In this document: in pieces, positions 3,014 through 56,991 of the stretch | Numbering within the stretch: the first letter of the stretch is position 1 | Layout of the letters: every line of letters begins with the position of its first letter | Assembly (NCBI GenBank): GCA_965242525.1 | Contig: OZ251459.1 | Coordinates: 2,537,037-2,601,036 of the forward strand | Length of the DNA stretch: 64,000 nucleotides | From: an uncultured Candidatus Binatia bacterium | Lineage (GTDB): Bacteria > Desulfobacterota > Binatia > UBA9968 > JAJDTQ01 | Reading direction: 5' to 3' | The notes under the pieces: generated by a model | What the model was told of the DNA's origin: nothing | The model's input: only the letters and a program-made list of their open reading frames with translations | Database searches by the model: none | Translations under genes and position numbers: made by a program

Positions 3014-6000
3014 TCAGGCTGCCGATTGCAGCGCGTGCCGGATGACCTGTTCCAGGCAATCGGGCTCGTTCAGGAAATAGACGCCGTCCGCCTTCCAGTC
3101 GCGGGCGGGGCGTCCGCGGTCGTCGATGTCCGCGGCCGGTGTGACGGAGAGGACGTAGGCGCCCAGACGAAGGTTCGGGTCCACCCTGCGCACCTGCCTT
3201 TCGATCTCCGCCATGTTCCGGTGCAATTGCACCTTTTCCCGTTCCTTTCGACCGAACCGGCTCAGCCCCTTGGGGTCGAGGAACAGGACGTGTTGCCGCT
3301 CGCCTTCCTTCAGCCAGACGATGAAGTCCGGGTAGTAGCCGAAGTCGTCGAAGAACGACACGCCCCGGCCCCGGGTCAGGTTGCGGATGAGGAACAACTC
3401 CCTGCCCTGCAGGCAGGGGTCGTCCTTCCGGGCCAGCCGTTCCAGCCCCTCCACCACGCGCCTCTCCGTCACGTCCAGGGGAACGGGCTGGACCGTAACC
3501 ACGCGGTCCTTCCTGGCGTAGAGCAGGGGCTGGTAGGCATGGGCGCGGGCGGGTATGACGCCGACCTTCAGGCGTGCGTACCAGTCCTTCAACTCGGCGT
3601 ACCGGCCTTCCCGCAGGTTGGCGGCCAACTCGCTGGCGTCCCGGACCAACTGGTCCTCGGCCGAATCCACGGACAGGTCGTAAGCCCCGGCGTTGTTCGG
3701 GTCGTCCTCGTCCAGGGTGACCACCGTGACCCTGTGGTGCTCCCAGCGCCGGCGTTGCCCGCGCCAGAAGCGCTCTGCGTATTCCGTGACGAGATCGACC
3801 GCGACGTCCTCCAGGCCGCGCGCCTGCCGGAACCCGGCGGAGTGCAGCCGTTCCGGCGGCAGGTAGAGTTCGTACCAGTCGTCGCTTTGCAGCAGTCGTT
3901 CCACGGTCCGCAGCGGGACGGCTAGGTTGCGCCAGTCCCTCTGCCGCTTGCGCCGCAGCAGCCGTTCATGGACCCGGGCCGCGTCGAAGAAGGCGGCATG
4001 GGGCTTGAGGCTGGCCAGGGATCTTTCCGCTTCGCGGCCGGCCGCGCCGCCGGAAGCAACGGACTGGAGCCGGGAGTACAGGTCCAGCGTTACGTTGGGA
4101 CGTCCGTCCTCCTCCGGCCCCGGCAGCGCGGGGCGTTGGTCGGAAAGGTCGTACCGCTCGTCCTCTTCGAGCCGGATGAGCTTCAGGTCCGTCTTCCGGG
4201 AGAAGTTCCAGGTGACCGGCAGCGAGAAGGTCTCCTGTTCGGTGCGCATCCCCTCCTTTGCCAGCAGGTCCCGGAATGCCTGCATGTAGTTGGCGCGCAG
4301 TCCGAAGACGTACAGCTTCTCCAACTCCGCCAGCTCGGCGCTGTCCGCGGGCGCCGCCGCCCCGGTTTCCCGGTGCCGCTTCAGGCTCATGTTCCAGCCC
4401 TTCAGGCGCACCCCGCGCCCGAACATCTGGATGATCTCCGGTCCTTCGCCCACGCCCACGTGCATCAGCCCCATGGTGCTCACGCGCCAGGAGTTCCAGC
4501 CCGCGATGAAGCGGCGCGCCCCGATGACCACGTTCACGGGCGAGCCCGGCCGGTCCACGTTGACGAACAGCCGCTCCGCAAAGCCCATCTCCCGCTCCAC
4601 GTCGAAGTCCGGGTCGGGCTGCTCGGTGAGCAGTTTGTAGAGCGCCGCGGAGTCGCCGACGTTGACCACCCCGAAGGGGTCGTGGTCCGAGGTCCGAAGG
4701 TGCAGCTCGCCCTCGCCCGCGGTGAGATAGGCCACGTGCAACGGCCCCGGGCCGTGGAACAGCGTGTCGCACAGGTCCGCGTAGAGGTCCTCGCCGGCCG
4801 GCAGGTGGGAGAGGCGGTCGGCGAAGACGTCGCGGCCGGCGTCGTCGAGCAGGCCCGATTCCCCGGCCAGCAGGCGCGCGATCATGGAACGCACCGCGTC
4901 TTCGTGGGCCAGCACCCAGCCCAGGAAGCTCAGGATGCGGACCACGTCGGACCGGGTTGCCTTGTCCGCCTTGCTCGATCCGGTCACGGTCTTGCCCAGG
5001 AAGACCCACAGGGGCTTGGCCGGGTTGAACGCCCGCCAACTCGCGCCCTTTTCCCGCCAGAGGCGGCATTGCTGGTAGAAGGTCAGCAGGCAGCCCAGCA
5101 GGTACGTGTCGCTGTTCGCGTCCTGCACCCCGCCCGGCAGGTTCAGGATGGCGTAGTCCTTGCCGTAGCCGTCCTCGTGGAACCGGCGGTAGGAATAGTC
5201 GAACAGCAGGCACTTGCCGTAGGCGTTCAGCAGGTCCTCGTCCTTCTTCCGGCTCACGATCTGGTTGAAGGTGGCCGAGTACTCGAACGTGAAGCCGCCC
5301 CGGGAGAGTTCCTTGCGATGTTCGCGCCAGGCATTGCCGGACGCGCCGAGGTGCCCCTCGTCCACCAGCACCAGGTTGTCGTCGCCGAAGTCCTGCACCG
5401 CCACCCGCTTCACGCCCTTGCGCCTGGCCAGCTTGTTCAAGTCGATGATCTCCACCGGCGCGAACAGGTCCGAACCGGCGCCGCTGGAGAACAGCCGCGC
5501 GTGCAGGCCGCTTTCCCGCAACTCCCGCTCGTGCTGCGCCGACATCTGTTCGTTGGGGGTCACCAGCACGACGTTGTTCAAGCGCCCGCCGGCCCGTCCC
5601 AGGTAGCGCCGGTATTGCAGGATGTGGGCGTGCATGAGCAGGGTCTTGCCGGAGCCGGTGGCGCTCTGGAAGGCCAGGGTGCGCAGGTCGTCCCGCGTGT
5701 AGTCCGGGAGGCCGAAGGTTGGCGGGTAGTGGGATTTCGCCTTGTTCAGGTCTGCGCACAGGGCCTCGGGGTCGTCGAAGTAGCGGCACAGGTAGTGCTC
5801 GGTGAACAGCAGGGCCAGGTACTGGTGCGGCTTCCAGGTCCGCCCGTGCTCCCCGGTCATGCGCAGCCGCCGGCTCAGCGCCCCGATGTGGGCGTCGTAC
5901 TCGGCGAACCGGTCGGGGATCACCTGGACACGCTTGGGGTTCAGGTACAGCGCCCGCGCGTACTCGCTCTCGCCGTCCCCGTCGAGCCCGGCCGGCGCGT

Positions 6001-6121
6001 CCCCCAGCCGTTCGAGCATCGCGCCCAGGTCCTCGTAGCCGAACTCCCGGCAGATGAAGCGGTGGAGGGCGAGGCGGTTTTCGAGGGGTATGCTTCCTAT
6101 CTGACGGCGACGTGACAGCAT
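3014..6121 (-). CDS. res: Type III restriction enzyme Res subunit (SF2 helicase + C-terminal PD-(D/E)xK nuclease)
   Basis: Helicase motifs ATGSGKT (I), VDEGH (II), YSATF (III) and QMFGRGVRLKG (VI). C-terminal YPDF...FLDPKG nuclease-like motif. The track ORF extends to 6160. I prefer ATG 6121 (MLSRRRQ...), which overlaps the upstream stop as TGATG. Confidence 0.85.
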   Translation of the reverse strand: MLSRRRQIGSIPLENRLALHRFICREFGYEDLGAMLERLGDAPAGLDGDGESEYARALYLNPKRVQVIPDRFAEYDAHIGALSRRLRMTGEHGRTWKPHQYLALLFTEHYLCRYFDDPEALCADLNKAKSHYPPTFGLPDYTRDDLRTLAFQSATGSGKTLLMHAHILQYRRYLGRAGGRLNNVVLVTPNEQMSAQHERELRESGLHARLFSSGAGSDLFAPVEIIDLNKLARRKGVKRVAVQDFGDDNLVLVDEGHLGASGNAWREHRKELSRGGFTFEYSATFNQIVSRKKDEDLLNAYGKCLLFDYSYRRFHEDGYGKDYAILNLPGGVQDANSDTYLLGCLLTFYQQCRLWREKGASWRAFNPAKPLWVFLGKTVTGSSKADKATRSDVVRILSFLGWVLAHEDAVRSMIARLLAGESGLLDDAGRDVFADRLSHLPAGEDLYADLCDTLFHGPGPLHVAYLTAGEGELHLRTSDHDPFGVVNVGDSAALYKLLTEQPDPDFDVEREMGFAERLFVNVDRPGSPVNVVIGARRFIAGWNSWRVSTMGLMHVGVGEGPEIIQMFGRGVRLKGWNMSLKRHRETGAAAPADSAELAELEKLYVFGLRANYMQAFRDLLAKEGMRTEQETFSLPVTWNFSRKTDLKLIRLEEDERYDLSDQRPALPGPEEDGRPNVTLDLYSRLQSVASGGAAGREAERSLASLKPHAAFFDAARVHERLLRRKRQRDWRNLAVPLRTVERLLQSDDWYELYLPPERLHSAGFRQARGLEDVAVDLVTEYAERFWRGQRRRWEHHRVTVVTLDEDDPNNAGAYDLSVDSAEDQLVRDASELAANLREGRYAELKDWYARLKVGVIPARAHAYQPLLYARKDRVVTVQPVPLDVTERRVVEGLERLARKDDPCLQGRELFLIRNLTRGRGVSFFDDFGYYPDFIVWLKEGERQHVLFLDPKGLSRFGRKEREKVQLHRNMAEIERQVRRVDPNLRLGAYVLSVTPAADIDDRGRPARDWKADGVYFLNEPDCLEQVIRHALQSAA

Positions 6122-6792
6122 CAGCAAAACAACTTGACTGCAAGCAAAACGATTGCACAAACACCCAAGAGCGCTGGGAAGATCAGTGGAGCGAAGATAT
6201 ACTCCAATGACCCAACAATGCGATAATAATACATGAACAACTGTATATCATACCTTTTTCTATTGGCAGAAATAGATTCATCACTTGGCTGTTTTGGCTC
6301 AGCTATGTCCTTCGATGATTCATCACTTGGCTGTTTTGGCTTAGCTGTGTCCTTCAAGATGTCCTCGCTAATAGACTTACTAAGGGGTTCACTGAAATGA
6401 AGCTCAAAATAGGAAGGTTGAGTGAATTCGCCTTTGCGCGAAGTCCAAAAATGCTTAAGGAGGCGGGTTCCATTCAATTGTCTGTGTAGTTTCCATGTGG
6501 AAAAAATGAATTTAACCATGAAGTAAGTCAATATGATGATTAAAAAAATCAAAAGTTTGCTTTCTGTAATTCCGGTAATTAGAATCCCCCGAACTATCGC
6601 ACCTACTTCCTCTTCATTGCCAGTGTGTGCTACATTCAGACCCAAGTCTCCAAGAACGTAAAAAATGGAGATAAACGACCATAAAATGGTCAATTTACGA
6701 TCGCGACGATTTAGGTCGTCGTCTACATGGACTTTGTATATCTCGATGAGTTCATCCAAGTCTTCAGCTTCCCGCTTCTGATCTTCTGTCAT
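6121..6792 (-). CDS. AT-rich small membrane protein of unknown function, inserted between mod and res
   Basis: 223-aa ORF with about three long hydrophobic segments (LTILWSFISIFYVLGDLGL, LLIFLIIILTYFMVKFIF, IFAPLIFPALLGVCAIVLLAV). Its start overlaps the mod stop (ATGA, 6789-6792) and its stop overlaps the res ATG (TGATG at 6119-6123). Two sampled lines give 35-38 % G+C against 68 % in the adjacent res line. Confidence 0.75.
   Translation of the reverse strand: MTEDQKREAEDLDELIEIYKVHVDDDLNRRDRKLTILWSFISIFYVLGDLGLNVAHTGNEEEVGAIVRGILITGITESKLLIFLIIILTYFMVKFIFSTWKLHRQLNGTRLLKHFWTSRKGEFTQPSYFELHFSEPLSKSISEDILKDTAKPKQPSDESSKDIAEPKQPSDESISANRKRYDIQLFMYYYRIVGSLEYIFAPLIFPALLGVCAIVLLAVKLFC
6275..6358. 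repeat. 2 x 42-bp tandem repeat inside the AT-rich membrane-protein gene
   Basis: gattcatcacttggctgttttggct(c/t)agct(a/g)tgtccttc occurs at 6275 and 6317. It encodes KDTAKPKQPSDESS / KDIAEPKQPSDESI. Confidence 0.8.
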
Positions 6793-9700
6793 GACTCTAT
6801 CTCCTCAAACATCAGTTCCCGGAAAACGGGATCGAGGGTTTCGGCAACCCAGGTTTCGCCGGGATGCTGCATGGCGTTCAGCGTGTGGTCGCCGTTGACG
6901 TAGATTAGGTCCAGGGATGAGACGAATCGGTCGCGGTTGCGGTCGAACCAGGCGTCCAGCGCGGCATAGTCCGTCTCGTGGATGTTGCGCCAGAGGATCA
7001 GGCAACGGCGCCCCTCGGCCTCCATGCCTGTGATGGTGAGTATGTCATCGATCCGGCGGCGGGACTCCACACGCAGGCCGATCAGGTAGTTGAAGGTTTC
7101 GGGCAGATCGACCGGGACTTCGCAGCGCACACCGTCGCGCACGACGGAGACGGTGTAGGCGAAGGGGTCCCGGAGCTCGTTGCCCAGCAAGGCGGGGCTG
7201 CCGGAGGTTTCGACGCCGAGGGCGTAGCGCAGCCGGTAGTCCTCTGCCATCTCCGGATTCTTGGCCAGGAGATCTTTCTGGCCGTCCGACAGTGGCGCTA
7301 CTACGAGGCTGTCCATCGTATCTTCGTAGGATTCGAGGCGAACGTACTCGAACAACTGGCTGACGCCGTTGCGCGAGACCGGCTTCCCGTTCTTCCAGTC
7401 CGGCGAATAGACGACCTTCTTCATGCGCGGCAGGATGATCGTGTCGAAGTGGCGACCGATTTCCACGAGCGTGTACCGCTGCTGCCCGCCGTCCTCCCGG
7501 TTGAGGTTGACCACCGCATGGCCGGTGGCGCCGGAGCCGGCGAAGAAGTCGAGAACCCGCGCACCGGCTTCGTCGCCGCCCGAAGCGCGGATACAGTCCT
7601 CCACCAGAGCGACGGATTTCGGAAAATCGAAGGGGTTGTCTCCGAACAGTTCCTTGAGCACCCTGGCTCCGTGGTTGGAGGATGCATACTTGGCGTCCCC
7701 CCACCATGTCTTGGGCGTGGACTCCACGTCCATACGCTGCATGAAGTGGATGCTGATGCCCTCCGTCCCCGGACCGTTGCCGTTTCTTTGCACACGGTAT
7801 TCGCCGGCTTCTTGAGAGACCCGCTCCCAACCGCGCTCCCAGTTCTTCTCGATCTTCGTCCCGTCCTGCTCCTTTACCGGCCAGACGACGGTTTCGTCCT
7901 TGCGCGGCTGCTCCAGGATTCGGTATTCCGAGCTTTGCTCGTCCCATTCCATTTTCGGAATACGCAACGTGTCGTCGTCACTGACGTAGATCGGGTAGTA
8001 CAACTTCGGCCGGTCGGCCCGCCGGTCGTTCGTTCCCGTCCGAAGCAGGTTGCGCCAGGCGTACCGTCCGCTCTCGTCGGAGAGGGGGTATCTCTGCTTC
8101 TCTTTCTCCGTCTTGAGAAGCGGCCCGGGGACGGCTTTCTCGCTACCGTAGAACAAGGCGTATTCGTGGGTCGGCGACAGCTTTCCCACCGACGTCCGGC
8201 CGATCGGCGTCGAGCGAACCGGAGCGACGCCGATTTCCTTGTCGAACACGTCCTGCAACAATGCGCGTAACCGCCAGACCTCTTCGTCGTCGATGGCGCA
8301 ACAGAGAATGCCGTCCTGAACCAGGAGCGCCTTGGCGAGCGGCAAACGGTTCTCCATCAGCGACAACCACGACGAATCCTTGAGGTCGTTCTTGTACAGT
8401 ATCGACGACGATGCGGTGTTGTACGGCGGATCGATGTACACGCACTGCACCTGCCCCCCATACCGCGCCTGCAGCAGGTTCAGCGCCTGGAAGTTCTCTC
8501 CGTGCACCAGCAGGCCATCCGTCTGCTCGTCCAGCGGTCCGGCGTCGGAGAGGGCGGCCAGCAGCCGGTCTGTGAAGTCCCGGTCGAAGTGCCGTGTGTC
8601 CAGCACCAGGAAGGGGTTGGCCTTGAGGAAATCGACGCTCGGGGGGACGCTCCAGGCCGCGTTGCCGTTGGTCAAATCCCCCGCTATCTCGTCCACCGCG
8701 AACAACTCGACCCACTCCTCGCATTGCGCGGCGTTGGCGGCGACCTCCGGGTGCAGCGCTTCCGGCACCCGGTCCAAGGTGACGCACCAGTTGGTTTCCA
8801 ACACCAACTTCTTCTTGAGCCAGAGCCGCTTCTGGAAGTCCTCCAGTTGCGCTAGGAAGTCGATGATCTTCCCGCCCACGTGGCGCATGGCCCGCACCCG
8901 GGCCAAGGCGCGGTCCAGCCGGGGGGCGTCGCCCTGTTCCAGGTCGTCCAGGTTCAGGACCTCGGTGTTCAGATAGAGGTCCAGTTCCTGGCGCAGGAAG
9001 CCGCTCAGGTCCTTGTGGATGAAGTAGTCGAAGCTGTTCTTCGCTGTGTAACGATCGAGGTGTTTCGCGAGCAGGGTGCGCTCGCCGTTGGCGTTGGTCG
9101 GGGCCGGCGCGGTCAGCGCGGCCTGCCAGTCCGGGTCCACCGCGTTCAGGATCCGTTCGACCGTCGCCTCGTTGATGCAACCCTGTTGCGAGACGCCGTT
9201 GCCCGGCCACCGCTTCTTCTCGCCCTCCGTCAGCGGCCGGTGCTCGAAGCGGACGGCCAGTTCCCCGTCCTCGACCGCGGCGGCGCCCTTGCCGCGCGCA
9301 AGCACGAAGCGGCGCTGCCGGCCGTTGGCTTCCTTGACGTTGTCCTTCTCGTTGTCCGCTGCGGCGATCTCGAAGCGCACGCGCCTCGCCGCATCGCCCG
9401 CGCCCACCGTGAAGGCGTAGCTCGCGTAGTTCTCGGTGGTCTTGACGTAGTACTGGTCCGCGTTGGCCCAGTGGAGCTTCACTTCCTCGCCGTCGTAGGG
9501 AACGAGGTAGGCGGACCGGCCGCCGCTCGAATAGCGGCGTTGCGAGACGAAGTCGCCCTCGGTGTAGTAGCGGGCGAAGAAGTTGGCCAGATGGTTGTAA
9601 ACGTCGGCCTCGGCGTCCGCGTCCTTCTTCATCTCGGCGAGCCGCCGGTTCAGCTTGGCGATCTTGGGTGGGGGTTCGGCATTGGGGCTGAGCCCCAGCT

Positions 9701-9974
9701 CCCATGCCTGCTTGCGGGCGGCCTCCAGTTCCTCTTCCAGCTCGGCCCGTTCTTCGGCGCTGGTGAGCCGCAGCGTGTCCTTGACCTGCGGCAGCAGGTC
9801 CCGGTCCAGGAACGACACGACCTCCGCGGCCTTGAGGTTCATGATCCGGTACAGGCCGAAGTCCAGGTCGCCGCGGTCGAGTTGGAACATCTCGTGCAAC
9901 AGGGTCTTCAGCCGGTCGAGCTTTTCCCCGGAGCCGGGGGCCGGCGCGGTTCGGGAAGGCGTCGAATCGCTCAT
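6789..9974 (-). CDS. mod: Type III R-M Mod subunit, beta-class N6-adenine/N4-cytosine DNA methyltransferase with long N-terminal extension
   Basis: Motif IV (VYIDPPYNT) precedes motif I (DFFAGSGATGHAV), the beta-class order. 1061 aa. Co-directional with res. Confidence 0.85.
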   Translation of the reverse strand: MSDSTPSRTAPAPGSGEKLDRLKTLLHEMFQLDRGDLDFGLYRIMNLKAAEVVSFLDRDLLPQVKDTLRLTSAEERAELEEELEAARKQAWELGLSPNAEPPPKIAKLNRRLAEMKKDADAEADVYNHLANFFARYYTEGDFVSQRRYSSGGRSAYLVPYDGEEVKLHWANADQYYVKTTENYASYAFTVGAGDAARRVRFEIAAADNEKDNVKEANGRQRRFVLARGKGAAAVEDGELAVRFEHRPLTEGEKKRWPGNGVSQQGCINEATVERILNAVDPDWQAALTAPAPTNANGERTLLAKHLDRYTAKNSFDYFIHKDLSGFLRQELDLYLNTEVLNLDDLEQGDAPRLDRALARVRAMRHVGGKIIDFLAQLEDFQKRLWLKKKLVLETNWCVTLDRVPEALHPEVAANAAQCEEWVELFAVDEIAGDLTNGNAAWSVPPSVDFLKANPFLVLDTRHFDRDFTDRLLAALSDAGPLDEQTDGLLVHGENFQALNLLQARYGGQVQCVYIDPPYNTASSSILYKNDLKDSSWLSLMENRLPLAKALLVQDGILCCAIDDEEVWRLRALLQDVFDKEIGVAPVRSTPIGRTSVGKLSPTHEYALFYGSEKAVPGPLLKTEKEKQRYPLSDESGRYAWRNLLRTGTNDRRADRPKLYYPIYVSDDDTLRIPKMEWDEQSSEYRILEQPRKDETVVWPVKEQDGTKIEKNWERGWERVSQEAGEYRVQRNGNGPGTEGISIHFMQRMDVESTPKTWWGDAKYASSNHGARVLKELFGDNPFDFPKSVALVEDCIRASGGDEAGARVLDFFAGSGATGHAVVNLNREDGGQQRYTLVEIGRHFDTIILPRMKKVVYSPDWKNGKPVSRNGVSQLFEYVRLESYEDTMDSLVVAPLSDGQKDLLAKNPEMAEDYRLRYALGVETSGSPALLGNELRDPFAYTVSVVRDGVRCEVPVDLPETFNYLIGLRVESRRRIDDILTITGMEAEGRRCLILWRNIHETDYAALDAWFDRNRDRFVSSLDLIYVNGDHTLNAMQHPGETWVAETLDPVFRELMFEEIES

Positions 9975-16414: not shown

Positions 16415-16590
16415 AGTCACATAACCCGCACGCATTCTTGAAGCGCCTCCAAGGGAGGGCCGCCCTCGACAGCGCCTTCCCCAGCATCTCGAAATCCACC
16501 TTGACACCGGACGGGCTTGTTCGATATAGCACCGGGTTCTTATCGTAACACTCGAATGGTTGAGGAGACTCGGAACGGTCCCGGAGGAAG

Positions 16591-16725
16591 GGCGCGTCCT
16601 TCGACTTCGCTTCGCTACGCTCAGGACGAACGGAGGTCCCCGCTTCGCTACCATCGGGACGAACGGGGACGGGAAGGCGCGTGAGGGAATAACCCTCATC
16701 CACGGCTCGATCGTTCAGGGTTTCC
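16591..16725 (-). repeat. MITE-like element, inverted and partly degenerate copy of the family at 56818
   Basis: Contains the reverse complement of the gtcctgagcgtagcgaagcg...tcgaaggacgcgc core plus a TIR-like ggctcgatcgttcagggtttcc end (16704-16725). Confidence 0.55.
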
Positions 16726-19363: not shown

Positions 19364-19846
19364 ATGAGGTTCCGGCCCACGGACATCTTCACCCTCTTCA
19401 TCGGGCTGGCCATCCTGGCGGCCATGATCGCCGCCTGGGACTGGCCCTTGCGGGCGTCCATCATCGTGCTGGTGCTGGGCAGCGCCGGGCTGGTGATGGT
19501 GGCGGCGCAGTTGATCCTGGACCTGGGCCGGAACCGCCGCAAGCCGGCCCCGGAGCCCAGGCTGGCTTTCGAGATCCCCTCGTTCGAAGAGGGCGGTCCC
19601 GAAGCCTTTCCCCGCGGCGCGCTGGAGGTCTGGTGCTGGTTGATCGGCCTGCTGCTGGCCGTATTCGTGGTGGGCCTGCCCGCGGCCCTGGTGCTGTTCG
19701 TCTTCCTCTACATGAAATGCTACGGAGCGGGCTGGCTCCTGTCCCTGGGCATGGCCGCGGCCATCACCGGGTTCGAGTACGGCGTGTACGACCGGATCAT
19801 GCACGTGTACTGGCCGGAAGCGCTCATCTGGCGCCTGTTCGAGTAA
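19364..19846 (+). CDS. TctB-like small membrane subunit
   Basis: 160-aa ORF starting 12 nt after the tctA stop. Four hydrophobic helices. Resembles the C-terminal extension of the fused TctA at 11321. Confidence 0.6.
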   Translation: MRFRPTDIFTLFIGLAILAAMIAAWDWPLRASIIVLVLGSAGLVMVAAQLILDLGRNRRKPAPEPRLAFEIPSFEEGGPEAFPRGALEVWCWLIGLLLAVFVVGLPAALVLFVFLYMKCYGAGWLLSLGMAAAITGFEYGVYDRIMHVYWPEALIWRLFE

Positions 19847-19847
19847 A

Positions 19848-20015
19848 GGAACCCCTGGACCATCGAGACATCCCGGACGGCTTCCCTCACCCCGACCATC
19901 CCGTTCCCGTTCGTCCTGAGCGTAGCGAAGCGGAGTCCCCCCATTCATCCTGAGCGTAGCGAAGCGGAGTCGAAGGACGCTCTCATGCTCTCTGTCCCGA
20001 TTGTTCAGAGGTTCC
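19848..20015 (+). repeat. MITE-like element (168 bp) with terminal inverted repeats
   Basis: Left end ggaacccctggaccatcgagaca (19848-19870), right end tgtcccgattgttcagaggttcc (19993-20015). The interior carries two tandem gtcctgagcgtagcgaagcggag units. Same family as 56818-56991. Confidence 0.75.
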
Positions 20016-20053
20016 CTTAGTTGCGTGTGGGAGTTTTCCTGCCCGCGGGGCGC

Positions 20054-23000
20054 CTACCAGCGCCAGCGGGTGTAGAGCGTGAGGCTGTTGGTCCTGCCGC
20101 CGCCGGCCCGTGTCTCGTGTTGGCCTTCCAGGTCCATGGCCATGGCCTTCCCCAACTTCATCCGGCTGCCCAGACGGTAGCCTCGGCGCCCCGGTCCGCT
20201 GATGGACACGCCGCCGTAGGGGGTCAGCAGGCCCGCGCCTTGGTGGGTCACCACTCCATAGCCCACGTCCAGGTCCAGGCGTTGCGCCGATAGCCCCCGC
20301 GCCGCGTCCTCGGGGTCCACGCCGGCCCGCAACCCCGACGCGCCGCGCCACATCTCCTCCAGTCGGCTCCCCTGCGCGCCCCACACCGGCGCCATGGTGA
20401 ACCACAGCCCTCCGCCGAACTCTCCCGGGTCCAGCCGCAGGGTCACGCTCGCGCCCCATTCGTCGAAGGACGACTCCTCGTGGAGCAGCAGGTACCGGCC
20501 CCGGGCCTCGACACTCAAGCCCAACTCCGTGTCCGCGAACTCCAGGCCGCCACCCAACTCCGCGCCCAGGCCCGTCTCCGCATCGCCGCGGTCCCACCGC
20601 CCACCGATCTCCAGGAACGGCGTCACCTGCGAGACCTCCGAGACCGGCCACTCGGTCCGTCCTTCCAGCATCAGCCGCATCCGTTGGGCATCGCCCGAGG
20701 CCTTCGGCAGCCCCTGTGCGGCGCCGACCTCCAGTCCGGTCAGGAAGGCGTCGGCCTTCATCGCCAGGTCGATCTTCCGCCAGGTGAACAACTCCTGCCG
20801 GGCGCCCACCGAGGCCAACAGCATCTCCAGGTCGGAATCCGCCTTCCCGGCCTCGTCCTCCAGGTCGGTATCGCCCCAGCCCGCGCCCAGCAGACCCCAC
20901 ACGCCCAAGCCGGAACGCGGGGTCCAGTGCACGTAGGGCAGCACGCTGGTCAGGCCCACGTCCACCTTGCCCCTGGTCACTCCGGTGGTCTCGTAGTCCA
21001 CGTCGCCCCAGCTTTGGGCCAGCGCCATGCCCAGCAACACGTCCCGGCGCATGCGGTAGTCGAGGCCCACGTAGCCGGTGAACACGTCGCCGTCCATGGT
21101 GAAGCCGTCCACCGGCCGACCGCCGAACCCGTTGGCCGTGCCCCGGCCCCACAACGTCCAGCCCGTGGTCCGGCCGCCCCGGGACTCCCGGTCGCTCAAC
21201 GGCAGCTCGAACCGGCTCCCGGCCAGTATCCCCGCCGCGGACACCTGCCGCCGGCGCCACGTCCGTCCGTCCGTCCCGGCCCACGGGCCGGCCGCGGCAT
21301 CGAAGTCGCGCCAGACCGCGGAAACTCGCATGGCCGCAGGGTCGTCCCACGCGCCGTTGCCTGCCGCGGACGAGTGGACCTCCACGCCCAGGACCCGCGC
21401 CATGCCGAAGACCATGTCCGCGGCGCCGTCGCGCCCCCCGGGGTCCAGCCGCAGCCGCTGCCCGCCCACGACCGCCTGCGCTTCCGAAGGCGCACCCGTG
21501 AACCGCCCGCCGATGACGTCCACCGCGTCCGTCGCCAGCGTGCGGCCCACTCCCGCCAGCACCATGTGCAGCGCCCGATGGCGCGCGCCCTCCGTGTCGT
21601 CGTCCGTGATCGTCACCGTTCCCGAAGCCGCCTGCGGGTCCGGCTCGGCGTTGGTGGCCTCCGTCAGCCGCACCCGGAACGTCTCCGGGGGCTCCACCCG
21701 CAGGTCGTCCAGGGTCTCCACCCGCAACGTCTTCTCCCGGTCGCCCGGCCGGAACGTCAGGCGCCCGTCCGCAGCGCGGTAGTCCTCCCCCGCCTCGGCC
21801 GTACCGTCCTCCGTGGCCCACCTCACCGTCACCAGGACTTCGGAGGGCTCGTCCAGCACCACCCGCAGCTCCGCAACTTCGCCTTCCACCGCGGTAGCGG
21901 CCCCTGCGGCCCCTATGGTCGAGGCCCTCGTGACCGACGCGATGGCCTTGCGGTAGGGCGTGCCGGTAACCTCGGCGTATTCGTCGCCGTGGCCGTTGGC
22001 GAACATGGGGGTGACGCGCACGGTGTACATGACGCCGGGGTCGAGGTCCTCGATGGTGTAGGTGACCCGGTTGGCGTCGGCGTAGGGGGTAGCCCGGACC
22101 GAGGAGATGGAACGCAGGGCGCTGGCGCGGTCGTCTTCGACGGAGATGCAGGTCCGCCCTTCGGGGACGCATCTGTCTTCCCGGTTCGGGTCGCCGCCGT
22201 ACTCCTGTGCGTCGGACCTCCACTCTACGCGGTAACCGGTCGCGTCGGGGACCCTCAGCCACGATACGTCCAGGCTCCCCGCTCCCGGCGTCACGGACGC
22301 GGTGATCTGGTCCAGCGGCGCGCCGGTGGCCTCGGCAGAGGGGGCGCCTTCGTAGAAGATCCCGAAGTCCGGCTTGACCCGCACGGTGTACGCGACGCCG
22401 GGGGTGAGGCCGGGGATCGTGTAGCTCCTCGTGTTCACGCCGCTCACCACGCGGTGCCGGTCCATGCCGGGGACATCGGAGTAGTCCGACGCAGCCCTGT
22501 AGGTCACGGTGTCGCTCCAGTGTTGCGCGCCGGACCTCCACTGCACCTTGTAGCCCTGGGGTTTGGTGCGCGTCTTCGGGTTCTCGGCGTCCGGCAGGGG
22601 GTCCCAGGCGACCGTCAGTTGTCCCGGCCCGGGCGTTACCCTCACGTTCTGCACCTGCCATTGCCGCGCCTGCTCCACGTCTCCTCCCCACACCGTGACG
22701 CCCCTTCCTCGAAGGGTCGCGATATGGCCGGCGGCGTCGGCGTTCAGGGCCGTAAGGTCGTCCAGCGAGACGTAGTCCCCGGAACCCAATCCCGAGTTGA
22801 GGACCAGCGGCGAGATGTCTTCGACGCCGGTCGCGTCGAGATCGAAATAGTAGATGCTGGTCAGGCCGCTCAACGGCGAGATGTCGCGGAGTCCATGGTT
22901 TTCCTGGAGTGTCAGGCGGGTCAGGGACGTCATCCCCCGGAGCGGCTCGATGTTCGTGATCCGGTTGACGTCGAGGGTTAGCCGATCCAGGCCGGTGAGG

Positions 23001-23536
23001 CCGGCGAGGGGGGTAAGGTCCGAGATCCGGTTGTCGTTGAGGTACAGCCGGGTCAGGCCGGTGAGGCCGGCAAGGGGGCTGAGGTCCGAGATCCGGTTCA
23101 CGGTGAGGCGCAGCAGCCTCAGGCTGGTGAGACCGGCGAGGGGGGTGAGGTCCGAGATCCGATAGCTCGCGTGGAGCGCCAGGGTTTGCAGGTTGGTGAG
23201 ACCGGCGATCGGCGCGAGGTTCTGGATGTCGCCATTTTCGATGGTCAGACTCCTCAGGCCTGTGAGGCCGGCGAGGGGGGTGAGGTCCGAGATGGGGTGA
23301 AACTGGATTATCACGCGGGTCAGCCCGGTGGCGTGCTCCAGTCCCGTCAGATCGTGGATGTGGCCGGCCACGTTGAACCGGTCCGAGAAGGGGCGCTCGA
23401 GATACAGGCAGCTAGTGGGGTTCGCAAAGGTGCAGGTCCTCAGCCCCGCCATGTCCGCATGGGTGATGGTCGCTCCGCTGGCCTTGTTCAGCGCCGCCTC
23501 CACCTTCGCCCGCAAGTTGGCGTCGGGGATGTGCAC
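20054..23536 (-). CDS. LRR / 2x FN3 / Calx-beta passenger fused to an autotransporter beta-barrel; true 5' end unresolved (see poly-C tract)
   Basis: About nine 22-residue LRRs (L.GLT.L..L.L..N.ISDL.PLAGL), two FN3-like modules, a Calx-beta module (EGEVAELRVVL...DYRAADGRLTF...TVTITDDD) and a beta-domain ending ...LYTRWRW. The frame stays open upstream of GTG 23536 and encodes a signal peptide (SLRVLLALWAVAAAVSFAAPAHEA) with no in-frame start codon. Confidence 0.8.
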   Translation of the reverse strand: MHIPDANLRAKVEAALNKASGATITHADMAGLRTCTFANPTSCLYLERPFSDRFNVAGHIHDLTGLEHATGLTRVIIQFHPISDLTPLAGLTGLRSLTIENGDIQNLAPIAGLTNLQTLALHASYRISDLTPLAGLTSLRLLRLTVNRISDLSPLAGLTGLTRLYLNDNRISDLTPLAGLTGLDRLTLDVNRITNIEPLRGMTSLTRLTLQENHGLRDISPLSGLTSIYYFDLDATGVEDISPLVLNSGLGSGDYVSLDDLTALNADAAGHIATLRGRGVTVWGGDVEQARQWQVQNVRVTPGPGQLTVAWDPLPDAENPKTRTKPQGYKVQWRSGAQHWSDTVTYRAASDYSDVPGMDRHRVVSGVNTRSYTIPGLTPGVAYTVRVKPDFGIFYEGAPSAEATGAPLDQITASVTPGAGSLDVSWLRVPDATGYRVEWRSDAQEYGGDPNREDRCVPEGRTCISVEDDRASALRSISSVRATPYADANRVTYTIEDLDPGVMYTVRVTPMFANGHGDEYAEVTGTPYRKAIASVTRASTIGAAGAATAVEGEVAELRVVLDEPSEVLVTVRWATEDGTAEAGEDYRAADGRLTFRPGDREKTLRVETLDDLRVEPPETFRVRLTEATNAEPDPQAASGTVTITDDDTEGARHRALHMVLAGVGRTLATDAVDVIGGRFTGAPSEAQAVVGGQRLRLDPGGRDGAADMVFGMARVLGVEVHSSAAGNGAWDDPAAMRVSAVWRDFDAAAGPWAGTDGRTWRRRQVSAAGILAGSRFELPLSDRESRGGRTTGWTLWGRGTANGFGGRPVDGFTMDGDVFTGYVGLDYRMRRDVLLGMALAQSWGDVDYETTGVTRGKVDVGLTSVLPYVHWTPRSGLGVWGLLGAGWGDTDLEDEAGKADSDLEMLLASVGARQELFTWRKIDLAMKADAFLTGLEVGAAQGLPKASGDAQRMRLMLEGRTEWPVSEVSQVTPFLEIGGRWDRGDAETGLGAELGGGLEFADTELGLSVEARGRYLLLHEESSFDEWGASVTLRLDPGEFGGGLWFTMAPVWGAQGSRLEEMWRGASGLRAGVDPEDAARGLSAQRLDLDVGYGVVTHQGAGLLTPYGGVSISGPGRRGYRLGSRMKLGKAMAMDLEGQHETRAGGGRTNSLTLYTRWRW

Positions 23537-23579
23537 CGGGTCGGTGGGCTGGGCCCCCGCGCCGGTATGCGCCGCGGCC

Positions 23580-23738
23580 TCATGCGCGGGCGCCGCGAAC
23601 GAGACCGCGGCCGCAACGGCCCACAGCGCGAGCAGGACGCGAAGGGAGCACCCTGAGTTTCGACCCGCGGCGGCGCAACCCCTTATCGGGGGGGGGGGGG
23701 GGGGCAGTGCATTCGGAAATCCCTTGCATGGTCGTCAT
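23580..23738 (-). other. ATG-initiated leader reading through the poly-C tract, out of frame with the autotransporter body
   Basis: ATG 23738 is preceded by CGAGGAC. It reads MTTMQGISECTAPPPPPDK... and stops at 23580. Removing one C would join it to the signal peptide frame. Confidence 0.5.
23688..23704. repeat. G17 homopolymer (C17 on the coding strand of the autotransporter gene)
   Basis: Direct count: 3 + 10 + 4 G across nt 23688-23704. Confidence 0.95.
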
Positions 23739-23916
23739 GGCGTCCTCGGCTTGCCGGAGGTTGGTATCCATCGGGTTTGCCCCTCTCCGGTCCGCCTTGG
23801 CCTTCGTCCACCCCGGAACCGGCCGCGAGTCGATGACGGAAAGGGAGACGGAACATAAGGACAACCGTTCACCTTGTCAAGGCCGAAACGCCGCCGCGCC
23901 GCCCGGACCCTATAGT

Positions 23917-24053
23917 GGCTCTTCGGGCTTTCGTGTGGGTAAGGCAGGAGGGAAAGGGAAGCGACAGGGACCACGCCGTCACTGCTCCGCAGCCACCTGC
24001 CCCGTCATTCCCGCAGCCGCCCACTCACGTCATTCCCGCGAAAGCGGGAATCC
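23917..24053 (+). repeat. Second copy of the composite repeat ending in the 27-bp REP unit
   Basis: Aligns with 16305-16414. REP unit at 24027-24053, plus a half unit cgtcattcccgc at 24002-24013. Confidence 0.75.
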
Positions 24054-24159
24054 ATCCGGTTTCCTCGCTCTCGTTGCACAAACCGCTCATACATGGCGCC
24101 CACGGGGTTTGCCCGCAGGATCTGGATTCCCGCCCCCGCTTCCGCGAGGACATGCTTTC

Positions 24160-24252
24160 GGAAACTCTGCACAATTCCGGTTTGAACCCTCTCTCCTGTG
24201 GGAAAACGCGTCCTGAGCGTAGCGAAGCGGAGTCGAAGGACGCGCTCATGCT
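24160..24252 (+). repeat. Truncated MITE-family copy (left TIR-like end plus core)
   Basis: ggaaactctgcacaattccgg ... cgtcctgagcgtagcgaagcggagtcgaaggacgcgctcatgct. No right TIR is present. It overlaps the stop codon of the 24246..25187 CDS. Confidence 0.6.
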
Positions 24253-25187
24253 CCCCCGGAAGATCCCCACAGCTCGTCGATGTAGCCGCTGTCGTCGATC
24301 TCTCGCAGGTGGTGCAGGTCCCACATGGCCAGGGGATTGAAGCCGGCCACCTGCGGGTGGCGCTTGACCGCCAGGGCGAAGACGTTCCGTATGGCGTCGA
24401 GGGTGGGGTAGGGCCGGGGCTCCAGGGAAGCGGCCTGGTCTTCGTAGAAGGCGGCAAGCTCTTCGTCCGACTCGTACTTGTCCCCGCAGTGGGTCCTTAT
24501 GATGTCCAGGGTCTCGTCCCGGCGGGTCTTGAAGAAGTGGACGCCGTCGATGAGCGCGCGGATCAGGGAGCGGACCTCCTCGGGGTGGCCGCGGACGTAG
24601 GTGGTGGTGGTGGTGAGGGTCACGCCCTCGATCATGTCCATGGTCGGGAGATCCAGGAGCCTTGCGTCCATGGCCCGTGCCCGCAGCCGGTCCACCGCGC
24701 GCACGAACGTGGCGTCGTATCGTCCCGACAGGACGCCGCGCACCCGCTCCACCGCGTTCTTGGGGCCGGTCACCAACTCCACGTCCCGCCCTTCCTCGAT
24801 CCCGTGGAGCCTCAGGAACAGCCACACGTTGAGTCCGGTGTGGCCGTCGAAGTCGTCCATGGCCACCCGCTTGCCCTTGAGGTCCTGGAGGCCGTGGATG
24901 CCGTCTCCGGCCACCAGGCAGTTCTCGCGCCACCGGTTGTTGGACTGGGCCACGTGGACGAAGGGCTCCCCGTGCAGGGCCCGGCGCACGTAGAGGTTGT
25001 GGTGGTTCCCGGAGACGACGTCGATGTCGCCGGCCCGCAGCCCCTGCATGGCTTTCCCGCGCATGCCCTCCATGGAACCGAAGTCCATGCGGATCCCGTG
25101 CCGCTCCAGGAACCCTCCCTGCTCCATGACCTTCCACAGGGGCACGTGGCTCGACGCCCGGTAGTAGATGCGCATCCTGCTTGCCAT
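24246..25187 (-). CDS. NMT1/THI5-like (NitT/TauT-type) periplasmic-binding-fold protein without obvious signal peptide
   Basis: 313 aa with alternating beta-alpha pattern and blocks (GDIDVVSGNHHN, KGKRVAMDDFDGHTG) resembling NMT1/SsuA-like binding proteins. Lies 24 nt downstream of the bicupin gene. Confidence 0.6.
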   Translation of the reverse strand: MASRMRIYYRASSHVPLWKVMEQGGFLERHGIRMDFGSMEGMRGKAMQGLRAGDIDVVSGNHHNLYVRRALHGEPFVHVAQSNNRWRENCLVAGDGIHGLQDLKGKRVAMDDFDGHTGLNVWLFLRLHGIEEGRDVELVTGPKNAVERVRGVLSGRYDATFVRAVDRLRARAMDARLLDLPTMDMIEGVTLTTTTTYVRGHPEEVRSLIRALIDGVHFFKTRRDETLDIIRTHCGDKYESDEELAAFYEDQAASLEPRPYPTLDAIRNVFALAVKRHPQVAGFNPLAMWDLHHLREIDDSGYIDELWGSSGGA

Positions 25188-26986: not shown

Positions 26987-27469
26987 ATGACGGAATTCGA
27001 ACTGGCCACCATCAGTTACCAGAACGAGATGCTGGGGCTTCGCTATCTGGGAAACTGGATTGCTGCAGCGGTCGGGTTCGGGCAGATCGTCTCGATCTGG
27101 ATCGGGTTCTGGCTCATGTGGCGGACCACCGACCAGCGCCGAGCCGCAGACGGTCAACGCCACGCCGAAGCGATGGATCTCGCCGGTCAACGCCACGCCG
27201 AAGTGATGGATCTCGCCGATAAGCGCCACGCGGAAGCAATGGAAGTCGCGGGCAAGCGCCATGATGAAGCCATGGAAATCGCCGACAAGCGCCATGATGA
27301 AGCGATGGAAGTCGCGGGCAAGCGCCACGAGGAGGCGATGGCCAGCGCCGACCAGCGTCACGCGGAATCCATGGCCGCTATCCGTGAGCAGGGCGAGGCG
27401 CTGCGGACCTTGATCCGGGGCATGGAGGCCGTCCTCGAACGCACTGCGCCAAGGGGGGACAGCCGATGA
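26987..27469 (+). CDS. Small membrane-anchored protein with seven 11-residue repeats
   Basis: Strong Shine-Dalgarno (GAGGGAGGAGGG). One N-terminal hydrophobic segment (WIAAAVGFGQIVSIWIGFWLMW), then 7 x (G/D)(Q/K)RH(A/D/E)E(A/V/S)M(D/E/A)(L/V/I/S/A)A. Confidence 0.6.
   Translation: MTEFELATISYQNEMLGLRYLGNWIAAAVGFGQIVSIWIGFWLMWRTTDQRRAADGQRHAEAMDLAGQRHAEVMDLADKRHAEAMEVAGKRHDEAMEIADKRHDEAMEVAGKRHEEAMASADQRHAESMAAIREQGEALRTLIRGMEAVLERTAPRGDSR
27152..27382 (+). repeat. 7 x 33-bp in-frame tandem repeat
   Basis: Units start at 27152, 27185, 27218, 27251, 27284, 27317 and 27350 (ggtcaacgccacgccgaagcgatggatctcgcc and variants). Confidence 0.9.
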
Positions 27470-50203: not shown

Positions 50204-50362
50204 GTGTTCATCGACACCAACGTTCTCGTCGCGGTCCGGTTCGTGACCGCGCCCCATCATGCGAGGGCCCGTGCGAGCGTCGATCGCGCTGGCGGCGGTG
50301 CGGAACCCCTGCGCATCAGCCGTCAAGTCTTGCGCGAGTCAAGGCCCAAGTCCCCGGCATGA
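50204..50362 (+). pseudogene. 5' remnant of a PIN-domain (VapC-like) toxin gene, truncated at the boundary of repeat unit 2
   Basis: GTG-initiated VFIDTNVLVAVRF...RISRQVLRE is the canonical PIN N-terminus (first acidic residue in IDTN). The frame ends after 52 codons, where the duplicated leader begins (50350). Confidence 0.45.
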
Positions 50363-54283: not shown

Positions 54284-54315
54284 ACTTTGGCCCGATCACT
54301 TCTGCTGTCCGGAAT

Positions 54316-56817: not shown

Positions 56818-56991
56818 GGAACCTCTGAACAATCGGGACATCCGGGATGGCTTCCCGATGCCCTCCCCCTGACGCCCCTATCCCCGTTCGTCCTGAGCGT
56901 AGCGAAGCGGAGACCTCCGTTCATCCTGAGCGTAGCGAAGCGAAGTCGAAGGACGCGCTCATGCCCCCTGTCCCGATTGTTCAGAGGTTCC
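56818..56991 (+). repeat. MITE-like element (174 bp) with perfect 23-bp terminal inverted repeats
   Basis: GGAACCTCTGAACAATCGGGACA (56818-56840) and TGTCCCGATTGTTCAGAGGTTCC (56969-56991). The interior has two tandem gtcctgagcgtagcgaagcg units. It begins 6 nt after the paralogue-3 stop. Confidence 0.85.

Follow-up and report, generated by a model that had tools for sequence, protein, structure and literature searches.

Pathogens that are adapted to a host and exposed to its adaptive immunity characteristically carry homopolymer switches in genes for surface proteins. In Neisseria pilC and opa and in Helicobacter oipA and hopZ, the repeats lie inside the region that codes for the signal peptide of an outer-membrane protein, often in multigene families. 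The Haemophilus influenzae loci lic1 and lic2A, which encode LPS-modifying enzymes, carry tetranucleotide CAAT repeats with ATGs in different frames 5' of the repeat, giving two expressing states and one OFF state. In another setting, eukaryotic-like proteins with LRRs are thought to let bacteria and sponges recognize each other. Runs of one base that exceed 10 nt are generally rare in bacterial genomes (PMC9262707). The poly-C tracts of NalP/MspA comprise 6-15 C and vary in length between isolates, and one length class is ON, which for NalP means 7, 10 or 13 C (PMC3723659). Here, we analyzed a gene for an LRR autotransporter within a 64-kb stretch of DNA (the window), for which control by a nalP-type poly-C tract had been proposed as a parallel from the sequence alone. 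The design that we found indeed matches the NalP/MspA switches, which have been established by experiment (PMC3723659).

A 17-C tract separates the start codons from the signal peptide

The features of the 5' region are as follows, from upstream to downstream.

23852..23880, minus strand: sigma-70-like promoter (TTGACA, 17-nt spacer, TATGTT), ~150 nt 5' of the tract
23769..23771, minus strand: ATG0, in frame with ATG1; begins MDTNLRQAEDAMTTMQGISECTA; GAGGGG 8 nt upstream
23736..23738, minus strand: ATG1; Shine-Dalgarno (SD) sequence GAGGA at 23747-23743, 4 nt upstream; in frame at 13, 16 or 19 C
23710..23712, minus strand: ATG2, in the third frame; SD AAGGGA at 23725-23720 with a 7-nt spacer; in frame at 12, 15 or 18 C
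23688..23704, minus strand (poly-G on the plus strand): 17-C homopolymer, the proposed slipped-strand switch; poly-Pro when read
23576..23662, minus strand: signal-peptide region with the n-region RNSGCSLR, the hydrophobic core VLLALWAVAAAVSFAAP and an AHEA motif
23580..23582, minus strand: TGA that ends the out-of-frame ATG0/ATG1 product at 17 C (63 or 52 aa); ORF 23580..23864

A scan of the whole window identified the C17 run at 23704-23688 as its longest homopolymer, with every other run being 7 nt or shorter. At the composition of the window, ~0.0008 G/C runs of at least 17 nt are expected in 64 kb and one was found. The sequence-only reading had placed this run behind an ATG at 23738 with a Shine-Dalgarno sequence, and this is the arrangement present on the minus strand (...GCCGAGGACGCC-ATG(23738)-ACGACCATGCAAGGGATTTCCGAATGCACTG-C17(23704-23688)-GATAAGGGGTTGCGCC...). 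As at contingency loci, a long tract sets the frame, C17 being located between the starts and the signal peptide.

The promoter is the one promoter-like site in the 4.5 kb around the gene (19800-24300; 0.2 expected), and its block is kept in the orthologous locus L001 despite different upstream genes. Translation from ATG0 (23771) reads MDTNLRQAEDAMTTMQ...; this start coincides with the called start of a paralog, P0121, and is missing from L001. Reading from ATG1 (23738) gives MTTMQGISECTA followed by C17, and ATG1 is kept in L001. ATG2 (23712) opens a second start frame that the sequence-only reading had overlooked, as it had the family-wide occurrence of the tract. At 17 C, its product is MHCPPPPPR, which ends at TAA 23685-23683. 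The segment GGGATTTCCGAATGCAC, comprising the SD, the spacer and ATG2, is the longest leader block spanning a start and its SD that is conserved with respect to L001.

The autotransporter frame is open from the TGA at 23737-23735 to the stop at 20054 and encodes ...IRGCAAAGRNSGCSLRVLLALWAVAAAVSFAAPAHEAAAHTG... downstream of the tract, where the signal peptide had been predicted. This frame contains no ATG, GTG or TTG before GTG 23536, which is positioned downstream of the signal peptide, as had also been claimed. The near-cognate start candidates in the window gene are CTG 23707 and ATA 23686, with no others. In the sequence as given, the signal peptide is therefore a coding segment joined to no start codon, and, with the stretch from the tract to the hydrophobic core devoid of canonical starts, expression must pass through the tract from the upstream ATGs.

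We rebuilt the region in silico with 11-22 C. Tracts of 13, 16, 19 or 22 C gave products of 1,226-1,240 aa from ATG0/ATG1 and tracts of 12, 15, 18 or 21 C gave products of 1,217-1,220 aa from ATG2, while 11, 14, 17 or 20 C gave peptides of 7 to 64 residues alone. This agrees with the earlier proposals that 13, 16 or 19 C would unite the leader of ATG 23738 with the signal peptide and that the gene is OFF as given, since 17 C belongs to the sole OFF length class, one base away from either ON class. With starts in two frames, two of the three length classes are ON; the two start frames thus bias the switch toward ON.

We propose, with a probability of roughly 0.7, that C17 is a hypermutable simple-sequence tract that acts as a translational on/off frame switch in the 5' coding leader. 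Transcription would start at the conserved sigma-70-type promoter ~150 nt upstream, translation would begin in one frame from ATG 23771/23738 or in the second from ATG 23712, and ribosomes would have to translate the tract into poly-proline before arriving at the signal peptide. Slipped-strand mispairing at replication would gain or lose C residues, such that 16 or 19 C would join ATG 23771/23738 to the signal peptide, 15 or 18 C would join ATG 23712 to it, and 14, 17 or 20 C would join neither set of starts and yield nothing but peptides of 9 to 63 residues. Such changes in length would be frequent and reversible and would serve the stochastic variation of a host-facing surface protein.

A frame lost at 17 C might also be rescued during expression, through stuttering of RNA polymerase or through +1 slippage of tRNA-Pro on CCC-C, in which case 17 C would mean low expression and not OFF. 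A shift of exactly +1, which has the same effect as 16 C, would correct the frame of ATG0/ATG1, and five CCC-C contexts follow one another in the tract; CCC-C is known as a classic site of +1 slippage, and transcriptional slippage is favored by long homopolymers. However, G/C runs are reported to slip less than A/T runs during transcription, and rescue by slippage leaves the differences in tract length between the paralogs (see below) unexplained. We consider this explanation distinctly unlikely.

The gene encodes an autotransporter with an LRR passenger

Downstream of the signal peptide, the following features were assigned.

20054..23575, minus strand: body of the autotransporter ORF; stop codon 20054-20056; protein end ...LTLYTRWRW
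~22745-23377, minus strand: LRR region, Pfam LRR_4, six stretches, 85 bits against a cut-off of 27
~22010-22654, minus strand: two fn3 domains, Pfam fn3, 55 bits against a cut-off of 25
~21596-21880, minus strand: Calx-beta domain, Pfam, 68 bits against a cut-off of 27
~20057-21151, minus strand: beta-barrel, Pfam Autotransporter, 30.6 bits against a cut-off of 26

Judged by eye, the signal peptide has a basic n-region, followed by a hydrophobic core of 17 residues and by AHEA, and it is conserved in the database relatives P0002-P0008 and in P0121. At the other end of the protein, the match to PF03797 comprises residues 862-962 and covers positions 2-100 of the 255 in the profile alone. Homologs carry a precomputed annotation with the same autotransporter beta-domain. 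A search with the last 381 residues, i.e., the barrel region, found no sequence relative in the PDB, and we therefore regard the barrel as divergent. The features of type Va secretion are nevertheless all found, namely a C-terminal beta-barrel domain, an N-terminal Sec signal peptide (by eye) and a C-terminal aromatic residue. Judging from these features, the predicted gene product is a type Va autotransporter with a passenger of LRR, two fn3 and Calx-beta domains. The passenger contains LRR, fn3 and Calx-beta only by Pfam and has no S8 or S6 protease domain; thus, the protein is not a member of the NalP/MspA family. The term 'giant LRR autotransporter' used for it earlier holds for the LRR autotransporter part, while its size of ~1,220-1,240 aa is ordinary for an autotransporter.

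The database protein for the window gene (P0001, 1,160 aa) is called from GTG 23536 and lacks the signal peptide. Genes of this kind, including the window copy, come out of gene calling truncated or split, and secreted eukaryotic-like proteins will consequently be under-counted in surveys.

A paralog and an ortholog carry tracts of other lengths

Searches by blastn and tblastn found no second copy of the autotransporter gene inside the 64-kb window. A paralog, P0121, comes from the same 4,149,062-bp contig; it is a 90% cluster mate of P0001 and 94% identical to the window protein. P0121 starts with MDTNLRQAEDAMTTMQGISECTAPPPPPPIRGCAAAGRN..., and its N-terminus MDTNLRQAEDAMTTMQGISECTAPPPPPPIRGCAAAGRNPGRSLRVLL is the in-frame translation of the ATG0 leader of the window, with six prolines for the tract. 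The 1,238 aa of P0121 agree with 19 C, a count deduced from the protein. Going by these sequences, a single chromosome carries one copy predicted to be ON (P0121, 19 C as deduced) and one predicted to be OFF (the window gene, 17 C as given).

The ortholog at L001 (protein P0002) shares 81% amino acid identity with the window protein and stems from a different, independently assembled metagenome. It shares the promoter, the leader and the equivalents of ATG1 and ATG2 with the window and has 13 C at the homologous site, in frame from the equivalent of ATG2 (ON). The comparison of orthologs, which had been named as a check on the switch, hence finds tracts at the same place and of different lengths. 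Including P0121, the tract is polymorphic between conserved flanks, with 17 C in the window, 19 C in P0121 (from the protein) and 13 C in L001. The anatomy of the locus, its frame logic and these differences in length between paralogs and ortholog are direct observations. Counting against the switch, all four differences between the window and L001 leaders upstream of the tract are non-synonymous (4/4), so that the leader peptide, as far as this pair of sequences tells, shows no sign of purifying selection.

The sequence-only reading had left the choice between a phase-variation switch and a homopolymer error. The comparative lengths favor the switch. A pure artefact, i.e., two-color poly-G or a mis-join in the assembly, is ruled out by the conserved, alignable flanks and by the tract that L001 itself has at the same site; it is also contradicted by the six-proline leader of P0121 and by the runs of 13-26 nt in relatives. 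What survives of the error alternative is a miscall of +/-1 at 17 C.

Such an error in consensus length would mean that the true modal length is 16, 18 or 19 and the gene intact, or that a mixed population was collapsed into one consensus. Either case is compatible with the tract being a switch. The source contig is a single 4.15-Mb sequence, and the closest relatives are complete chromosome-level MAGs as well as contigs named in the style of metaMDBG (such as ctgN_19x_c), suggesting long-read assembly. Homopolymer indels are the main residual error of long-read assemblies. A change of +/-1 base restores an ORF, and the 94%-identical paralog is ON. The limits at homopolymers have been discussed (PMC9262707). 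The sequence itself shows no sign of error, however, and gaps of 2-8 nt between near-identical leaders (17 versus 19 C here; 14, 16 and 22 nt in the relatives described below) are too large for miscalls. Furthermore, OFF alleles are expected at such loci, with about half of the nalP alleles being OFF in collections of meningococcal isolates (PMC3723659). We regard an error in the consensus length as possible, with the balance of these points tilting against it.

The same pair of genes bears on the idea that the window copy is a decaying pseudogene, in which a fixed frameshift in a redundant paralog has no regulatory meaning. A second, intact copy on the same chromosome and a signal peptide served by no canonical start are what decay would predict. 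Against it, the frame is uninterrupted over 1,210 codons with no other lesion; any inactivation would therefore be recent or reversible. The sole defect is in the tract, where one slip restores function, the promoter and start regions are conserved, and the C-terminal 700 residues are 96-100% identical to the intact paralog. We judge decay to be highly improbable.

The tract recurs across a family of LRR proteins

We gathered relatives by scanning one genome per species with the N-terminal alignment. The high-GC relatives (63-71% GC) are found in chromosome-level MAGs labelled as Gammaproteobacteria, Binatia, Alphaproteobacteria, Nitrospirales and Spirochaetia, and more distant low-GC LRR proteins in MAGs labelled as Poribacteria, Latescibacterota and others. 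Two reports describe Poribacteria and SAUL as symbionts of sponges (PMC11656744, PMC8546597). The lineages of the relatives are typical of sponge microbiomes and the bacteria are probably sponge symbionts; the window may likewise be of sponge origin.

All of the top eight genome matches, and 12 of the ~19 high-GC matches, have a single run of G or C that measures 14-25 nt. These runs are mostly located within ~140 nt (up to ~230 nt) upstream of the signal-peptide core, and the 3-kb loci of the tract-bearing relatives contain almost no further run of at least 8 nt. No long G/C run was found at the loci of the low-GC relatives. In line with the DNA, a protein search showed that the N-termini of homologs often have PPPP... 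or GGGG... just ahead of the signal peptide. Further loci carry G26 (L083, L087), G14 (L086) or a decayed G3AG3AG7 (L088), and the relatives' runs at this place together span 13-26 nt of G or C.

The lengths differ even between close copies. L002 and L004 are paralogs in one chromosome with leaders that are 97% identical, and they have G22 and G16, respectively; L086, which visibly shares this leader, carries G14. G22, G16 and G14 beside near-identical leaders are, from their sequences, the expected signature of slipped-strand mutability. At L082, an interrupted tract, C10TC6, directly follows GGAG-N7-ATG in frame and resembles a locked-ON allele, the interruption presumably stabilizing the tract. 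A scan of metagenomes for GCCGCGGCGCATACCGGCGCGGG, a conserved 23-mer, hit two unrelated sequences by chance and nothing else. As a point against the switch, the OFF-state leader peptides had no match in other assemblies.

Two structural peculiarities were seen in these loci. At ~700-900 of L082, a G10 run is located inside a beta-barrel coding region (...FDEW-GGGGGGGGGG-CC...) at the 3' end of an autotransporter gene upstream of P0005; this run in a tandem paralog may mark another site of slippage or reflect a problem of the assembly. In L083 (1451-1560) and L087 (1448-1560), a degenerate duplicate of the signal peptide (CTCCCTTCGCGCCCTGCCCGCGCCATGAGCCGTTGCGGCC...) lies downstream of G26 and contains the ATG from which the gene is called; the structure of the family's 5' region is therefore dynamic beyond the length of the tract.

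Most relatives have a start codon next to the tract

To the window and L001 we compared the 5' regions of L002-L009, L011, L015, L025, L036, L082, L083, L086 and L087. A canonical in-frame start downstream of the tract is present in 16 of the 18 tract-bearing loci examined, with the window and L001 being the only loci that lack a canonical start between the tract and the hydrophobic core. In 10 of the 18, a start in the autotransporter frame is located close to the tract end, at -1 to +4 nt, and frequently takes the form GTGA or ATGA. At this position, an in-frame ATA that overlaps a stop is found in the window and L001 (ATAA, ATAG). From these sequences, the tract may act on initiation rather than on the reading frame in much of the family, and a post-tract start that overlaps a stop suggests a family-level role in initiation or coupling beyond a simple frameshift model. 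The post-tract starts in most relatives also weaken the extrapolation from the family to the window gene.

Applied to the window, the tract would then be a leader element that works independently of frame, through termination and reinitiation at an upstream ORF, through occupancy of the ribosome-binding site, or as a G-quadruplex or i-motif. Translation would start from the ATA at 23686-23684, with tract length tuning its level and no on/off switching. Besides the starts close to the tract in the 10 loci and the in-frame ATA kept by the window and L001 at the homologous position, this explanation can draw on the ATG2 upstream ORF, which at 17 C terminates exactly at the overlap of ATA and stop. 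It can also draw on the coding strand being poly-G in some members and poly-C in others, since both orientations suggest a strand-symmetric property at the DNA level and not a specific peptide. On the other side, AUA is a very poor initiator in bacteria, and the window and L001, devoid of a canonical downstream start, have kept two upstream ATGs equipped with SDs. In L082 and P0121, the frame clearly runs from upstream ATGs across the tract. Moreover, folding of the 5' region gave a stability not above that of its shuffles (z = +1.0), such that no structured RNA was detected in the leader; Rfam matches and tRNAs were likewise absent from the window. A frame-independent leader element therefore appears unlikely to us for the window gene, for which we maintain the frame switch.

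A more speculative proposal, and on the whole a rather unlikely one, is that LRR autotransporters of symbionts from several labelled phyla share a horizontally exchanged 5' module in which the tract is more than a frame-shifter. The module may have the order promoter, short leader, G/C run of 13-26 nt, mostly abutting an overlap of start and stop (RTGA), and signal peptide. Tract length may determine whether the leader is fused to the gene, terminates and reinitiates, or overruns the real start, which would amount to a three-state switch of translational coupling. Alternatively, the tract may be a G4 or i-motif that initiates recombination, fitting the mosaic exchange of LRRs (see below). In either option, if true, this would be an undescribed way for animal symbionts to vary their host-facing 'eukaryotic-like' proteins.

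The autotransporter genes are mosaics

We compared 20057-23686 of the window with P0121, P0123, P0003 and P0122. Paralogs within a genome are 96-100% identical over the C-terminal ~700 aa (fn3/Calx-beta/barrel), and their identity falls to 70-76% in the LRR region. Each of two LRR types is shared between genomes at 92-94% identity, while the C-terminal halves share 30-65%. This pattern suggests an exchange of LRR modules or a homogenization of the remainder by gene conversion, and it fits a protein under diversifying pressure.

Repeats were found around the gene and elsewhere in the window.

19938..20015, unstranded: 78-nt dispersed repeat (family D10), just downstream of the stop codon of the gene
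24201-24278, 56914-56991 and, inverted, 16583-16669: D10-related copies of ~78-87 nt with the core TCCTGAGCGTAGCGAAGCGGAGTCGAAGGACGC, the first of them upstream of the promoter

The copies at 19938-20015 and 24201-24278 bracket the autotransporter gene. A REP-like motif (GGATTCCCGCTTTCGCGGGAATGAC) is located at ~24030-24060 and also upstream of the homolog in L082.

Other parts of the window contain further repeated or possibly acquired sequence. Three tandem paralogous subtilase (Peptidase_S8) genes on the plus strand (47049-49640, 50259-52997 and 54287-56812) are 82-92% identical in 300-nt blocks and coincide with positive peaks of GC skew; short repeats of the CACAGCC type are found at 5' ends of these genes (47224-47359, 50560-50710). 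On the minus strand, 3014-9974 encodes a pair resembling a Type III restriction-modification system, with a ResIII helicase ORF (3014-6160) and an N6_N4 DNA methylase ORF (6789-9974). The GC content of this stretch is lower (55-59% versus ~68%), which suggests an acquired island, and the methylase gene showed no long repeat tract. Finally, seven to eight tandem 33-nt repeats at 27118-27381, within the plus-strand ORF 26987-27469, encode an 11-residue unit (~KRHxEAMExAx); the protein is small and has a hydrophobic segment near its N-terminus.

Comparison with known switches

At the window locus, a homopolymer device is attached to an LRR autotransporter, and relatives with labels from several phyla have it as well. 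If the switch is real, uncultivated symbionts of early-branching animals would also turn host-interaction proteins on and off stochastically, and the tract lengths in sequencing reads would provide a countable metagenomic marker of surface-protein variation. The mechanism of the switch is of a known, NalP-like type; the gene family and the setting appear to be undescribed. A literature search found no paper on homopolymer tracts or phase variation in LRR or eukaryotic-like proteins of sponge symbionts, with which the window gene has the LRR passenger in common.

The repeats of pilC, opa, oipA and hopZ resemble the tract described here in that they lie between the start and the mature surface protein and in that each paralog has its own state (17 C in the window, 19 C in P0121). 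They differ in their repeat units (G, CTCTT, CT), in belonging to unrelated protein families and in family size, two copies being documented here. With lic1 and lic2A, the window gene shares the ATGs in alternative frames upstream of the tract, but it has a C homopolymer, encodes a secreted protein and bears no sequence relationship to the lic loci.

NalP/MspA of N. meningitidis and the window gene alike have a poly-C tract early in the coding sequence of a type Va autotransporter, and its length modulo 3 decides on expression, in the window gene by prediction. The passenger of NalP is a serine protease, whereas that of the window gene is composed of LRR, fn3 and Calx-beta domains. The tracts of NalP/MspA measure 6-15 nt and are longer here, with 17 C in the window and 13-26 nt in relatives. 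NalP/MspA belongs to a human pathogen, the window gene to an uncultivated high-GC bacterium in which we infer switching from sequence. Lastly, NalP/MspA has one ON class, whereas the two start frames of the window gene would place two of three length classes in the ON state.
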